NCBI GenBank assembly: GCA_016839265.1
Contig: JAEOUO010000002.1
Span: forward strand, 60,001 to 92,000
DNA length: 32,000 nt
DNA from: Candidatus Odinarchaeota archaeon
GTDB lineage: Archaea > Asgardarchaeota > Odinarchaeia > Odinarchaeales > Odinarchaeaceae
Direction: 5' to 3'
The translations under genes and the position numbers were made by a program. The notes below the pieces were generated by a model, which saw only the letters and a list, made by a program, of their open reading frames with translations, was not told the DNA's origin and made no database searches. Numbering within the stretch: the first letter of the stretch is position 1; every line of letters starts with the position of its first letter. This document shows, one piece after another, positions 9,079 to 14,790 of the stretch.

Positions 9079-9120
9079 TTTATATCGAACAATTGCACAA
9101 TTTTAATTATAATTATTGTG
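9079..9120 (+). promoter_or_regulatory. Putative promoter (TTTATAT box) and CACAAT-N13-ATTGTG inverted repeat upstream of the Lrp/AsnC-like gene
   Basis: TTTATAT at 9079-9085; CACAAT at 9096-9101 and ATTGTG at 9115-9120 straddle the expected transcription start. Confidence 0.35.
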
Positions 9121-9142
9121 TTTTTTTTCAGGTGAATTTTTT

Positions 9143-10738
9143 ATGCTGAAAGCGGATTCCCTGTCGATTATCGAAACAACAATTAACGGCTACCTTGATA
9201 AAGAGAATATTTGGGCTGAATTTTTAGATTCCCCAGTTATTTTTAATATGGAGCAGGCTCAATTAGCGCGTAGAATATTTAAAAAATATGTTTCAAAAAT
9301 AATTCCTGAGAGTATAATAGAAGATCTTGAATATCTTTTACTCTACAAATTATCTGATGCTACTTTCAGACAAAAATTATTGAAAGAATGGTGTGAGAAG
9401 AAAAATTCAGATGTAGAAGACGCTACTAAAATAACATACGAGTTTGAAGACGGATCCTGTTATAGAGCTGTTTACGATCTTATTCTTTACGATAAAATGA
9501 CTAGTGGCTTGTTTCTCCCCACTATTTTAGAAAACTTGAAAAAATTGGAAAAATATAATTATACTCTTAATCTAAAAGATGCATGTCACTATATTCGACT
9601 CCACTCACTTTTAACTTATATTGTTGAATTAGATACGACTGATATTAAAATCATAGAGTTACTGAGCAAGGACCCTCTTATCTCAAATAATGATGCTGCT
9701 ATTAGACTCGGATTATCTAGAAACACTTTCTCAAACCGTGTAATAAGACTTCAGAAACGTGGTTGTATCTTCTTTAACGGTAGGATAAATCTTGAAAAAC
9801 TTGGTTTAAAAATTTTAACGATTATGACTGATCAAATCCTACCTAAACTTCCTTACATGAGAATTGTACAGGAATTGAGAGGCGGTTCAACATTCTACCT
9901 TTATTCGTTTAATATTCCTGAAGAATTTTTAGTCGCATTCATTGAATTGGTTAAACCTTATATTCGAAACGCTGAATACTGGATTGATGAAGGACCTGGG
10001 CGTCACTCTCTCTCATTACGAAATTCTTACGACACTGTTAATAAAAAATGGGCTTTTAACTGGGAGAATTGGGCACTATGGGTAAGAAAGGTTTTAGACG
10101 AATCATGGCATACGCTTTATGTTTCAGGTGACGTTGAAGAAGCCGGTTTAGAGGAGACTTATGAAGTAGGGAAATTAGATTATGATCTACTAGATTTAGA
10201 GTTATTAAATCAATTAAGCTATGATTTCAAACAACCTATACGTGATATTTCACTTAAACTAAAGGTGTCACCGACTACTGTTTATGATAGAAAGACACGT
10301 TTAATTTCAAAAGGTGTTGTTAAACCAATTTTATTTGTGGAAAATATAGGATTAGACGAACATGTATTTATTAAAATTAAAGGATCTGATAAAATCATAA
10401 ACTCTGTTGAATCTGGTTTATTAGATCTACCGAGCGTCTACATTTTTCGAGTTAGAAATTTAAGAGGTGAAACAGCGCTTAACGCTTATCTTTTTCTACC
10501 TAAAGGTAGTCTTGTAATGGTTGATTACACGCTTAAAAACTATTTAGAAGATATAGGTGAAGAAGTTGATTTCAAACTTTTCTATAGGCTTAAACAAAAC
10601 TACCTCTCTCAAGGGCTCCCATTCACTTTCGAAAATACTTATTTATATAAAGAGAACTTTAAAAAATGGGTTTTTCCGCAAAAAACTATTATTAAAATAT
10701 TAAAAGAAAGTGGTGAACTCCATTTCAGCGGAGTCTAA
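9143..10738 (+). CDS. Large transcriptional regulator with two Lrp/AsnC-type winged HTH domains and an unknown N-terminal domain
   Basis: HTH1 DTTDIKIIELLSKDPLISNNDAAIRLGLSRNTFSNRVIRLQKRG and HTH2 LDLLDLELLNQLSYDFKQPIRDISLKLKVSPTTVYDRKTRLISKGVV, each followed by a beta-rich region. ATG 9143 follows CAGGTGA. Confidence 0.85.
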   Translation: MLKADSLSIIETTINGYLDKENIWAEFLDSPVIFNMEQAQLARRIFKKYVSKIIPESIIEDLEYLLLYKLSDATFRQKLLKEWCEKKNSDVEDATKITYEFEDGSCYRAVYDLILYDKMTSGLFLPTILENLKKLEKYNYTLNLKDACHYIRLHSLLTYIVELDTTDIKIIELLSKDPLISNNDAAIRLGLSRNTFSNRVIRLQKRGCIFFNGRINLEKLGLKILTIMTDQILPKLPYMRIVQELRGGSTFYLYSFNIPEEFLVAFIELVKPYIRNAEYWIDEGPGRHSLSLRNSYDTVNKKWAFNWENWALWVRKVLDESWHTLYVSGDVEEAGLEETYEVGKLDYDLLDLELLNQLSYDFKQPIRDISLKLKVSPTTVYDRKTRLISKGVVKPILFVENIGLDEHVFIKIKGSDKIINSVESGLLDLPSVYIFRVRNLRGETALNAYLFLPKGSLVMVDYTLKNYLEDIGEEVDFKLFYRLKQNYLSQGLPFTFENTYLYKENFKKWVFPQKTIIKILKESGELHFSGV

Positions 10739-11783: not shown

Positions 11784-12683
11784 TTAATTTTCAACGCGAA
11801 TTAAATCTTTTCCAGCATTTTTAACAAATTCTAGTAGTTTATTATAATCTCTGAAGCGTATTTTTCCTTCTACGCTTAAATATAAGTCTCTTGTTTGTAT
11901 TTCACTCCAACTTCCAAGTTTACTTAAATCAATCTCCTGTCGTCTATTAAGCTCCGTTAATCCTTTTCCAACATTACTTCCATGGAAAACTATTTTTTCA
12001 ATACCCGCGGTGCCGCTTATTTCTCTTGAACATGTTAGGCTCGCTGTTAATACTTCTTCATGGCTTGAAACAAACTCTTTTATCACGTAAGCGGGGAAGA
12101 GAATTTTATATAATCTTATATTATAATTCTTAATTTCATCTAAAATTTCACTGTTTTCTTTAAAACTGTTCTTTATAACAGCTACCGCTTGTTTACCATC
12201 TAAAAACCCGATCATATTTTTGCAAGCTTCTTGAATAGTTGATTTAACGTTTAACTTTTCAATGTTAAATAAATAATATACGCCAGATTTCAGCGGTTTC
12301 TCGATCCATAGGTAAATTTTACCCTGATTTCTTAAATAATCTTGATTAAGCTTCAAACTGTAGTTTCCAGCTGCCTGTTCAATTTTGTAGAGTATCCACT
12401 CCTCCTCCCAGAAAATATTCTCAAAATTTAAAACTTTTTGTAAACCTAAATATAAGCTGATTAATCTAGGAAGCTTCTTATGGTCTAAGCCTGCTGCAAG
12501 TATTTCTTTTAGTTTAGAGCCTGTTAACCCTAGATACTTATAAAATTCTGTAAGTTCACTTTGACTGTACTGTTTCAATAATTTTATAAGCGGTGTTCTA
12601 TCCGTCGAAGTTAAAACGTTCACTTTTTTCATAACTGTTCTTCCTAATTCTTGATAATTAAAAATATTTAATATTACCTCCAA
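11784..12683 (-). CDS. Uncharacterised protein, candidate CENP-N/Chl4-like (probable start ATG 12632)
   Basis: CDS is secure. Family call by eye: N-terminal helical segment (LLKQYSQSELTEFYK...PRLISLY...EEEWILYKI) and C-terminal KIVFHGSNVGKGLTELNRRQEIDLSKLGSW resemble CENP-N/Chl4 segments as I recall them. Unverified; the confidence refers to the family call. Confidence 0.45.
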   Translation of the reverse strand: MEVILNIFNYQELGRTVMKKVNVLTSTDRTPLIKLLKQYSQSELTEFYKYLGLTGSKLKEILAAGLDHKKLPRLISLYLGLQKVLNFENIFWEEEWILYKIEQAAGNYSLKLNQDYLRNQGKIYLWIEKPLKSGVYYLFNIEKLNVKSTIQEACKNMIGFLDGKQAVAVIKNSFKENSEILDEIKNYNIRLYKILFPAYVIKEFVSSHEEVLTASLTCSREISGTAGIEKIVFHGSNVGKGLTELNRRQEIDLSKLGSWSEIQTRDLYLSVEGKIRFRDYNKLLEFVKNAGKDLIRVEN

Positions 12684-12731
12684 CTATATAAGCTATTATA
12701 AAAATTTGAATAGTTAATTAGAGGTTTTAGA

Positions 12732-13286
12732 TTGAATCACACATATAGCTTTAAAATTCTTTTACTAGGGGACCCCGCGGTTGGTAAAACATCACTCATC
12801 CACAGATTTATTCAAAACAGTTTTAACAGCGATTATAAAGCAACTATAGGTGTTGATATCATGAGTAAAACACTTCAAATAAACGAGGTCACGGTGAAAC
12901 TTTCATTATGGGATATTGCCGGACAGGATAAATTCCGACTTTTCAGAAATGTTTTTTACAGAGGCGCTTCAGCCGCCATCATCGTGTTTGATTTAACAAG
13001 AATTTCTTCTTTTAACAATTTAAATAACTGGGTTAACGAGCTTCATATGTATGTTAATGTTAAAATACCTTTCATTATTATAGGTAATAAATTAGACTTA
13101 GACTATATGAGAAATGTTGAGAGAGAGGCCGCTTTAAAATATTCTGAGGGATTAAGATCACCTTATTTAGAGACAAGCGCGAAAACAGGTAAAGGTGTAA
13201 ACGAGTGTTTCACCGCTATTTCAAGACAGTTACTTAAAGAAGCTTTAACCTCTACCCGCCACTTTGAAAACACTATATATAGTTAA
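12732..13286 (+). CDS. Rab-like small GTPase (Ras superfamily)
   Basis: G1 GDPAVGKTS, G2 YKATIG, G3 WDIAGQDKF, G4 NKLD, G5 ETSAK. RabF-like IGVDI, KLSLW, FYRGA, IVFDLT. No C-terminal Cys prenylation motif. GAGGT RBS. Confidence 0.95.
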   Translation: MNHTYSFKILLLGDPAVGKTSLIHRFIQNSFNSDYKATIGVDIMSKTLQINEVTVKLSLWDIAGQDKFRLFRNVFYRGASAAIIVFDLTRISSFNNLNNWVNELHMYVNVKIPFIIIGNKLDLDYMRNVEREAALKYSEGLRSPYLETSAKTGKGVNECFTAISRQLLKEALTSTRHFENTIYS

Positions 13287-13339: not shown

Positions 13340-13783
13340 TTGAAACTTGTAGAGTTGACTAGTAAAGTTGTAGATTGTCTCAAAAAATCATCTAAACCAC
13401 TATCTGCAGTTGAAATCACCCGTAAAATAAATTTGCCTATTGAAAAGAAGAGACGGATTTACGATGTCTTAGACGTGTTAGAAGTTTTAAATATGATAAA
13501 AATCTCTAGACGCGGTAATGAAAAACTAGCTCAATGGTTTTCGGCGGAGAAAACTGTTTTAAAAGAGTCTTTAACTGTTGAGAAAAAATTGGAAGATAAA
13601 CCTCACTGCGTGGTTAATGTTGATCTTGTTTTTCCCTCATCTGATTACAAGAATCTGAGTAATCAAACCTGGCAGGAAATGATGGTTAGGGATGTTAAAA
13701 GAAATATTAAAGGTTTATTAGATATAATTGTAAATGATATTAAATTAATGGAGGCTAAGAGAGTTTTAGCCACCAGTCAATGA
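13340..13783 (+). CDS. E2F/DP-like winged-helix DNA-binding protein
   Basis: KKRRIYDVLDVLEVLNMIK (RRIYD at 13451-13465) followed by QW, matching the E2F/DP signature RRxYDxxNVL...W. The N-terminal LVELTSKVVDCL fits helix 1. GAGGA RBS. Confidence 0.75.
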   Translation: MKLVELTSKVVDCLKKSSKPLSAVEITRKINLPIEKKRRIYDVLDVLEVLNMIKISRRGNEKLAQWFSAEKTVLKESLTVEKKLEDKPHCVVNVDLVFPSSDYKNLSNQTWQEMMVRDVKRNIKGLLDIIVNDIKLMEAKRVLATSQ

Positions 13784-13788
13784 AAAAA

Positions 13789-14163
13789 CTAGCTTTTATC
13801 ATCTGCTAATATTTTGGATATATCAGTTTCCTCTTTTCCCCTTCTCTTAATTTTAATTTCAGGTCCGCGTCCTTCTATTCTTCTTTCTAAAAGCATTATA
13901 TCTGTCTTAGATATTTTAGATTGAAGCCCATACTGGTTGACGATCATTATAAGTATATCCTCTATCTGCGCTGCTACCGCTGGTTTTAACTTATATATTT
14001 CGTTAAGATAGTTTAACGCGTCTTCTTCGCAGATCAATCTGAAGAATTTATCTTTCTCATGTTTCAGCTTCTCCCGGTATTCTTTTAATTTAACCTGTTC
14101 ATTGATTTTTTGAATCATTTCTTTCATTTTCTTAAGTCTTATACGCTCCAATTCATCCATCAC
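13789..14163 (-). CDS. PDCD5-like (double-stranded DNA-binding protein family), divergent member
   Basis: DELERIRLKKMKEM N-terminus, ALNYL...KPAVAAQIEDILI, KIS, C-terminal EIKIKRR; the overall PDCD5 pattern is present. Confidence 0.72.
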   Translation of the reverse strand: MMDELERIRLKKMKEMIQKINEQVKLKEYREKLKHEKDKFFRLICEEDALNYLNEIYKLKPAVAAQIEDILIMIVNQYGLQSKISKTDIMLLERRIEGRGPEIKIKRRGKEETDISKILADDKS

Positions 14164-14440: not shown

Positions 14441-14668
14441 TTATGTCGACGGTAAACTCTGAATTTTATATACTAAACCGTTAGCTCTTTTTAACTCCGC
14501 GGCTAATCTAGCTGCTATAAATTTTTCTCTTACAGGCGCAGTATCTGGTATAGAAGTGTATACTACTCTTTTTTCTTGATCAAGAATGATTATACACGAG
14601 TTTTTATCAGCTTCAGCTACCGGCTTTAACTCCCCCTCTGTTGTCACGCAGTAAATTTGCTGAGTCAT
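14441..14668 (-). CDS. Single-domain gelsolin-like protein (Asgard ProGel-type)
   Basis: CIIILDQEKRVVYTSIPDTAPVREKFIAARLAAELKR follows the gelsolin-domain pattern (hydrophobic-D, beta strand, x-S/A-x-x-x-K-F-x-A-A-R-x-A helix). ATG 14668 follows GTGGT; the ORF track starts at 14677. Confidence 0.62.
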   Translation of the reverse strand: MTQQIYCVTTEGELKPVAEADKNSCIIILDQEKRVVYTSIPDTAPVREKFIAARLAAELKRANGLVYKIQSLPST

Positions 14669-14790
14669 GTTAACCACATTTTCGTAGTTTAACTACATAT
14701 AACCATAAATAATATTTATACTTTTCTACATTTCTATAATATAAAAATATATAAATACAGTGTCTTAAAAAATAAAAGCTGGTAATCATT

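Follow-up and report, generated by a model that had tools for sequence, protein, structure and literature searches.

A single-copy Asgard archaeal protein family with a predicted RdgC/CENP-L/CENP-N fold, a candidate homodimeric DNA clamp

We describe an unnamed protein family of Asgard archaea that is found as a single copy per genome, appears to have descended largely vertically and has a predicted fold of the RdgC/CENP-L/CENP-N type. We think it probable that its members are homodimeric clamps on double-stranded DNA and that the family is an unduplicated relative of the CENP-L/CENP-N pair. The member that we studied, P0002, is encoded in a 32,000-nucleotide stretch of DNA (the window) from the 1.35 Mb genome of an Odin-group Asgard archaeon. 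A reading of this window from the sequence only had proposed that the gene encodes a homologue of the kinetochore protein CENP-N/Chl4. That proposal survives in part. Membership of the fold superfamily and a C-terminal motif stand, but the core of the predicted structure is nearer to CENP-L/Iml3 and the protein family fails the Pfam threshold for CENP-N. In the literature library that we searched, no publication on kinetochores, CENP-L, CENP-N or RdgC in Asgard archaea describes the family.

The open reading frame was present as earlier described, with 299 codons opening with TTG at 11784-12683 on the minus strand. The ORF list and the translation bear out both the frame and all of the residues that had been quoted from it, including K230-W259 at 11907-11996 (in the numbering of the 299-codon ORF). 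The true coding sequence most likely starts 17 codons downstream of the TTG (Table 1). Four close homologues from Odinarchaeia (57-73% identity, each labelled 'hypothetical protein') start at a Met that corresponds to ORF residue 18, and no homologue reaches into the 17 codons ahead of M18. We place the start at M18 because the homologues all begin near this residue and because the TTG lies within an AT-rich, TATA-like stretch, in which we mark the AT-rich element as a putative promoter. Residue numbers are given for the 282-aa P0002, and adding 17 gives the numbering of the 299-codon ORF. The gene neighbours are ordinary or housekeeping genes, such as those for prephenate dehydratase, a proteasome subunit, ribosomal protein S7 and others.

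Table 1. Positions in the window of the P0002 gene, its predicted parts and the adjacent features.
Feature	Position	Strand	Basis
CDS of P0002, 282 aa, stop codon 11784-11786 included	11784..12632	-	ORF list, translation, homologue starts
17 additional codons of the TTG ORF; probably 5' leader/promoter, non-coding	12633..12683	-	inferred
TATA-like AT-rich element (putative promoter) within the 99 bp between the P0002 gene and the divergent GTPase gene	12685..12703	-	read from sequence
N-terminal four-helix domain, residues 14-67	12432..12593	-	AF2; start point of CENP-N/Chl4 structural alignments
Globular alpha/beta domain, residues 75-180	12093..12410	-	structural alignment to CENP-L, Iml3, RdgC
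C-terminal beta-sheet/helix, predicted dimerisation domain, residues 181-282	11787..12092	-	AF2, structural matches, homodimer prediction
Most conserved family motif, residues 193-250, similar to Chl4 381-438	11883..12056	-	alignments, hhalign, Pfam, HMMER
Predicted homodimer interface, residues 206-239	11916..12017	-	complex prediction
Ras/Rab-like small GTPase, divergent from the P0002 gene, intact G1-G5	12732..13286	+	Pfam Ras 9.7e-53

Standard sequence searches did not place the protein. Neither Pfam and NCBIfam searches nor HMMER runs on the whole set of PDB sequences gave anything significant for P0002 or for profiles of 4 and 39 sequences, and no family member scored above any curated Pfam or NCBIfam threshold. 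A phmmer run over 1.84 billion representative proteins, which is our coverage beyond Asgard archaea, found 18 relatives, 16 of them 248-316 aa in length and two of them short fragments. Conservation among these relatives peaks in the C-terminal third. A word-indexed profile search found one more relative only.

A profile search of the Asgard phylum matched 108 of 400 genomes, with exactly one copy in each. The proteins are approximately 280-300 aa long, and their source labels are Odinarchaeia, Helarchaeota, Heimdallarchaeota and Freyarchaeum. (The contig of one member carries a bacterial MAG label.) Some GTDB families have the gene in nearly every genome (29/31, 21/22 and 11/12, for example), and several large Asgard families have no detectable copy or nearly none (for example 1 of 135 genomes in GTDB family f22). 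A maximum-likelihood tree splits the members into two clades, one Heimdall-labelled and the other Odin-, Hel- and Frey-labelled. The tree also sorts the members by GTDB family, with 13 label changes against 23.1 when the labels were shuffled, and none of 200 shuffles gave a count as low. Because the tree groups the members in this way, the sequences fit mainly vertical descent.

The single copy matters for comparison with the kinetochore. Each of the 108 positive genomes, the host of P0002 included, had a single match, and so no CENP-L-like paralogue. The CENP-N trait of an obligate heterodimer with such a paralogue is therefore contradicted by the genomes. The description of P0002 as a compact protein with no linker was borne out.

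The strongest sequence link of the family is to Chl4. Aligning the family profile with hhalign to one of Chl4, which was a shallow and yeast-only alignment of 11 full-length Saccharomycetaceae proteins retrieved via 51 Chl4 residues, gave a probability of 85.5% (P 5.8e-6, score 49.2) over 58 columns. Controls with reversed profiles and 130 column shuffles reached a probability of at most 1.6% and a score of at most 23.5. The register falls inside the C-terminal fragment of Chl4 that was crystallised with Iml3, and by this measure the CENP-L/Iml3-binding domain at the C-terminus of CENP-N/Chl4 is present in the family. The likeness is limited to these approximately 58 residues, which hold the invariant residues G207, G210, G218, R231 and G240 of the family alignments. 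The motif had originally been matched to Chl4 by eye. We conclude that the match is genuine, and the Chl4 string used for it agrees with the HMMER alignment printed for 4JE3 chain B.

That alignment comes from a search of 177,635 PDB sequences with a sub-clade profile, for which the Chl4 C-terminal fragment (4JE3 chain B) was the sole match at E 0.86. The match is not significant alone, because the Heimdall-clade profile gave a noise match to PLK2 at E 0.66. We also considered the Heimdall clade as the one nearest to Chl4 and rejected this, since its sub-profile reached only 6% against Chl4 in hhalign, with the register unchanged.

A lenient Pfam scan of 39 members against 24,736 models listed CENP-N first, with three members matching and a best E of 0.053. 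ApbA and RdgC came next with two of the 39 members each. The three CENP-N matches are below threshold, belong to one sub-clade and fall at positions 366-395 of the 410 in the Pfam model, which is the C-terminal motif. Formal membership of Pfam CENP-N did not hold up: the best family member scored 13.2 bits against the PF05238 gathering cut-off of 25, and P0002 itself had no match. When we scanned all 400 Asgard genomes with PF05238, none had a protein over the cut-off, and only two of the weak matches (G304 and G305) belong to the family of P0002. ORFs of approximately 295-313 aa that touch the N-terminal part of the PF05238 profile are unrelated proteins. The CENP-L model, PF13092, was absent from the best 25 of the 33 families listed for the 39 members, with E values up to 10. 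No member passed the gathering threshold of RdgC (PF04381) either, with a best E of 0.02.

RdgC is nevertheless within reach of the family profile. With hhalign and an RdgC alignment of nine proteins, family residues 137-208 aligned to RdgC 123-206 at a weak 17.7%. The score was 31.5, and none of 60 shuffles scored above 19.4. The Chl4 and RdgC profiles did not detect each other, with a mutual probability of 0.4%. As the Asgard family is linked to both of them, it behaves at the profile level as an intermediate sequence between Chl4 and RdgC.

Structure prediction depended on the depth of the alignment. AlphaFold with four Odin sequences gave an unusable model (pLDDT 35), while the 39-sequence alignment gave a confident one (AF2, pLDDT 81.4, pTM 0.78). 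The model has three parts, which are an N-terminal four-helix domain, an alpha/beta domain and a C-terminal sheet/helix domain. The N-terminal domain has helices at residues 15-19, 24-33, 38-47 and 56-67 with a pLDDT of approximately 80-87. Structural alignment makes the alpha/beta domain the equivalent of the centre domain of RdgC and of the CENP-L/N homology domain.

We searched structure libraries with this model. With Foldseek, the first PDB match was human CENP-L (E 4.8e-6, TM 0.50/0.47), followed by yeast Iml3 (7e-5), E. coli RdgC (5.5e-4) and human CENP-N (9.6e-3); TBP and unrelated chains appeared only from an E of approximately 0.1. VIA-align, an exhaustive search of 48,161 PDB representatives that is independent of Foldseek, found seven chains with a Z of at least 5. 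These were CENP-L (9.3), RdgC (8.3), Iml3 (7.6) and four CENP-N/Chl4 chains (6.8, 5.8, 5.8 and 5.7), and the first unrelated chain had a Z of 3.1. Comparison of an AlphaFold model with CENP-N, Chl4 and CENP-L structures had been proposed as a check on the sequence-only reading, and it came out in favor of the wider group, as all seven chains belong to RdgC, CENP-L or CENP-N. Re-aligning the top 1000 Foldseek matches agreed with VIA-align, with RdgC at 9.2 and CENP-L at 9.3-9.8.

Libraries of predicted structures gave a similar picture. Among the 30 rows from Swiss-Prot AFDB, 29 were CENP-L, RdgC, CENP-N or Iml3, with CENP-L/Fta1 at ranks 1-8, and the remaining row was AF_0896, an archaeal protein that is uncharacterised. 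The top TM-score in the ESM Atlas went to a fungal CENP-L cluster (0.55/0.62), and uncharacterised bacterial and archaeal clusters and RdgC followed. Apart from the family, the AFDB clusters returned entries under the names CENP-L or Fta1 and a number of uncharacterised proteins. CENP-L thus came first in all three of the named libraries (PDB, Swiss-Prot AFDB and ESM Atlas). Taken together, membership of P0002 in the RdgC/CENP-L/CENP-N fold superfamily is well supported by the model. The predicted core is structurally nearest to CENP-L/Iml3, with RdgC approximately equal by Z-score and CENP-N lower.

The relatives differ in where their alignments begin. Structural alignments to CENP-L and RdgC begin at model residue 65-77, whereas those to CENP-N/Chl4 begin at residue 11-15, opposite CENP-N residue 6-18. 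Because the CENP-N/Chl4 alignments start there, the predicted helical domain would occupy the place of the pyrin-like domain of CENP-N. The suggestion that the N-terminus is colinear with that of human CENP-N is thus in line with the structural alignments, but we found no sequence signal for it, as the alternative hhalign alignments reached at most 1.1%.

P0002 shares features with each of three known proteins. CENP-L/Iml3/Fta1 (PF13092; 7PKN_L, 7XHN_L, 4IT3) is similar in size, aligns at Z 9.3-9.8 over approximately 195 residues with the two-domain core in common, and shares the predicted dimerisation by a C-terminal beta-sheet. P0002 differs from it in being archaeal and single-copy, in having no PF13092 sequence match, in being predicted to pair with itself and not with a paralogue, and in its additional N-terminal helical domain. 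With CENP-N/Chl4 (PF05238; 6EQT, 6C0W, 4JE3_B), the C-terminal motif aligns and the N-terminal helices and alpha/beta core are colinear. However, the whole-chain Z is lower (5.5-6.8), P0002 is approximately 60-170 residues shorter and is without the long linker, and it has no CENP-A to read. RdgC (PF04381; 2OWL, 2OWY), a bacterial ring dimer that is associated with recombination and the nucleoid, has the same fold (Z 7.8-9.2), is also approximately 300 aa in length and encoded by a single gene, forms a homodimer as is predicted for P0002, and has the weak profile link through its centre domain. Set against RdgC, P0002 is archaeal and not proteobacterial, is below the Pfam threshold, has the extra N-terminal helical domain and has one predicted interface.

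We then come to how two copies of P0002 would pair. Predictions with two copies gave ipSAE values of 0.58, 0.49 and 0.59, where the highest value among three controls was 0.00, with at least 79% of contacts in agreement and a pLDDT of at least 79. In calibration, 20 of 30 known homodimers but only 1 of 23 monomers attained the mark for a homodimer, and the pass of P0002 may partly stem from the predictor's memory of solved relatives. The prediction supports a P0002 homodimer. A homodimer is expected rather than a heterodimer because there is no CENP-L-like paralogue. In the predicted dimer, strand 213-217 pairs with itself, antiparallel, over the two-fold axis, and the interface falls in the most conserved, Chl4-similar segment of the family. 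RdgC, RexA and Iml3-Chl4 dimerise by an antiparallel sheet across the interface (PMC11077077). Only this one interface was confident, and a closed ring of the RdgC kind would have two.

In the mechanism that we propose, two copies of P0002 would pair through strand 213-217 into a horseshoe- or ring-shaped homodimer, and this dimer would clasp double-stranded DNA with no sequence specificity. RdgC encircles DNA, and CENP-L/N forms a positively charged vault round one DNA duplex (Pesenti et al. 2022; PMC11077077). From the analogy with these proteins and from the median pI of the family, which is 9.16 (a few basic columns are conserved), we infer that clasping duplex DNA as a homodimer would be the most likely activity. 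The cellular role and the ancestry are proposals of the same kind. The sequence-only reading also suggested that the protein may bind complexes of archaeal histones with DNA and may be a precursor of the inner kinetochore, both of which we regard as conjecture.

There are other ways to read these results. P0002 could be an ordinary RdgC-like protein of prokaryotes that modulates recombination or associates with the nucleoid. It would then be no nearer to CENP-L/N than RdgC, RexA or similar families are, and its likeness to the kinetochore pair would reflect an ancient shared fold only. We take this account seriously and consider it rather unlikely. RdgC ties CENP-L by Z-score (9.2 against 9.3-9.8 in one comparison and 8.3 against 9.3 in the other), recurs among the sub-threshold Pfam matches and has its weak hhalign link, and uncharacterised bacterial and archaeal families are among the best AFDB and Atlas matches. 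RdgC-like folds are widespread in prokaryotes, and RdgC-like proteins have been reported beside histones, in Halobacteria and Bacillus only (PMC11390915). These proteins of the 'RdgC histone' operons and the AF_0896/MJECL33 family have the broad fold class in common with P0002, and some have extra terminal domains; unlike in those operons, no histone or transmembrane partner gene lies beside the P0002 gene, and we detected no sequence relation. What weighs against an ordinary RdgC-like protein is that CENP-L came first in three structure libraries, that the strongest profile link is to Chl4 (85.5% against 17.7% for RdgC), that structural alignments set the N-terminal helices against the first part of CENP-N and that the family, as far as sampled, occurs only in the archaeal lineage nearest to eukaryotes. 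A related idea is that P0002 is an RdgC/RexA-like part of a mobile system that defends against viruses or excludes them, which we think extremely improbable. Phage exclusion involves RexA and several other proteins of the RdgC fold (PMC11077077), and a feature search of the Atlas lists a GAPS4b_N cluster with a score of 0.89. However, the members have no consistent PADLOC or PHROGs family, the single-copy gene tracks taxonomy and sits among housekeeping genes, and lambda RexA (8TWQ) shares the broad fold class at a Z of only 2.7.

The divergent neighbour of the P0002 gene raises the question of whether the protein works with small GTPases. Of approximately 14 GTDB families examined, 6 have a GTPase gene next to the family gene. 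The two genes diverge in f1, f2, f17 and f19, and in f11 and f32 they run in the same direction, 8-38 bp apart. We considered whether the neighbour could be a CENP-M-like pseudo-GTPase and ruled this out, as all of the neighbours keep G1-G5. A reading in which P0002 works with Rab/Roc-like GTPases as their partner or effector, such as a scaffold for dimerisation, and has its main role off DNA, would draw on this adjacency, on the f17 and f19 neighbours being the best genome-wide matches to the Odin GTPase, and on weak structural matches to the COR dimerisation domains of Roco/LRRK2 (Z 2.4-3.0). We judge it quite improbable. The COR matches are at noise level. Orthology to the Odin GTPase holds in f17 and f19 only, and f11 and f32 have other paralogues beside the family gene. 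Within the host genus the neighbour is missing in one genome and apparently split in another, and eight other GTDB families have no GTPase within 6 kb of the family gene. Some adjacency is also expected by chance, because each genome encodes at least 21-68 GTPases of this kind. In our estimate the linkage exceeds chance, but it is loose.

This leaves the homodimeric DNA clamp as our preferred reading, with the question of how close the family is to the kinetochore pair. Pesenti et al. (2022) proposed that CENP-LN arose by duplication of an RdgC-related singleton that bound DNA as a homodimer. Tromer et al. (2019, PMC6601020) detected neither relatives of CENP-L/N by sequence nor, in Asgard genomes, a segregation system like that of eukaryotes. 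On our reading the family would be an unduplicated archaeal relative of the CENP-L/CENP-N pair that ties the pair to bacterial RdgC by profile. A special kinship with the kinetochore pair is not established, because RdgC ties CENP-L by Z-score and because other prokaryotic families (uncharacterised proteins of Bacillota, Thermoproteota and the AF_0896/MJECL33 group) have TM-scores comparable to that of CENP-L.

A stronger version would make the family the direct descendant of a single archaeal gene that was duplicated into CENP-L and CENP-N, with a role in chromosome organisation or segregation. In the human kinetochore CENP-L contacts the GTPase-fold protein CENP-M (PMC12046508), and the pairing with a GTPase gene would then foreshadow CENP-L/CENP-M. 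Direct CENP-L/N ancestry is plausible and unproven, and we hold this fuller account only tentatively, on the doubtful side of even. If it is true, the family would be the first component of the constitutive centromere network to be traced to Asgard archaea, whose chromosome segregation is essentially a blank according to a 2025 review (PMC12188315). With its profile bridge between RdgC and CENP-N and its predicted unduplicated homodimer, the family corresponds to the ancestor that Pesenti et al. (2022) had postulated, and the origin of one inner-kinetochore module becomes testable by biochemistry and phylogeny.

In six GTDB families, the family gene has as its neighbour a gene for a Ras/Rab-like GTPase whose G1-G5 motifs are intact (the window and the compared loci L039, L040, L041, L022, L047 and L048). 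The GTPase genes occur in two different orientations relative to the family gene, and between some of the six families the GTPases differ in paralogue. Within the genus of the source, the GTPase is missing from one genome (L004), and in another (L006) the match comes as two overlapping pieces, which is possibly the result of a frameshift.

The gene for an E2F/DP-type winged-helix protein lies beside the GTPase, an arrangement that is conserved within the Odin order. The next gene encodes a PDCD5-like protein; at L047 and L048, which represent two distant Asgard families, a gene of this kind likewise adjoins the GTPase. Elsewhere in the window there is a protein with two AsnC/Lrp-type domains, which is exceptionally long for this class of regulator.

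Some genes in the window other than the family gene
Feature	Position	Strand	Evidence
540-aa protein, two AsnC/Lrp-type winged-helix HTH domains	9116-10738	+	Pfam HTH_24, E 6.5e-17, two stretches
Ras/Rab-like GTPase	12732-13286	+	G1-G5 motifs intact
147-aa protein, E2F/DP-type winged-helix domain	13340-13783	+	Pfam E2F_TDP, E 6.4e-9, over cut-off
PDCD5-like double-stranded-DNA-binding protein	13789-14163	-	Pfam dsDNA_bind, E 3.2e-9
78-aa ORF	14441-14677	-	

In Roco/LRRK2 proteins, a dimerisation domain called COR adjoins a Roc GTPase domain. Residues 73-282 of the AlphaFold model of the family protein (med7c273a134b) gave weak structural matches to this COR domain at noise level (Z 2.4-3.0), a resemblance that is curious in view of the GTPase neighbour.

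One family member (P0018, HUY00733.1; locus L002) was deposited under the name of a bacterial MAG, Candidatus Deferrimicrobium sp. The genome belongs to the Asgard phylum set, and the contig is probably mis-binned or mislabelled.

The RdgC-like fold also appears in the uncharacterised archaeal and bacterial MJECL33 / AF_0896_M family (Foldseek E 2.7e-3), seen as Swiss-Prot O29366 (AF_0896, Archaeoglobus) and as an Atlas cluster with PF25924/PF27341; in bacteria this family includes helicase-fused versions. The RdgC-like fold is spread more widely among prokaryotes than one would judge from the RdgC Pfam family.
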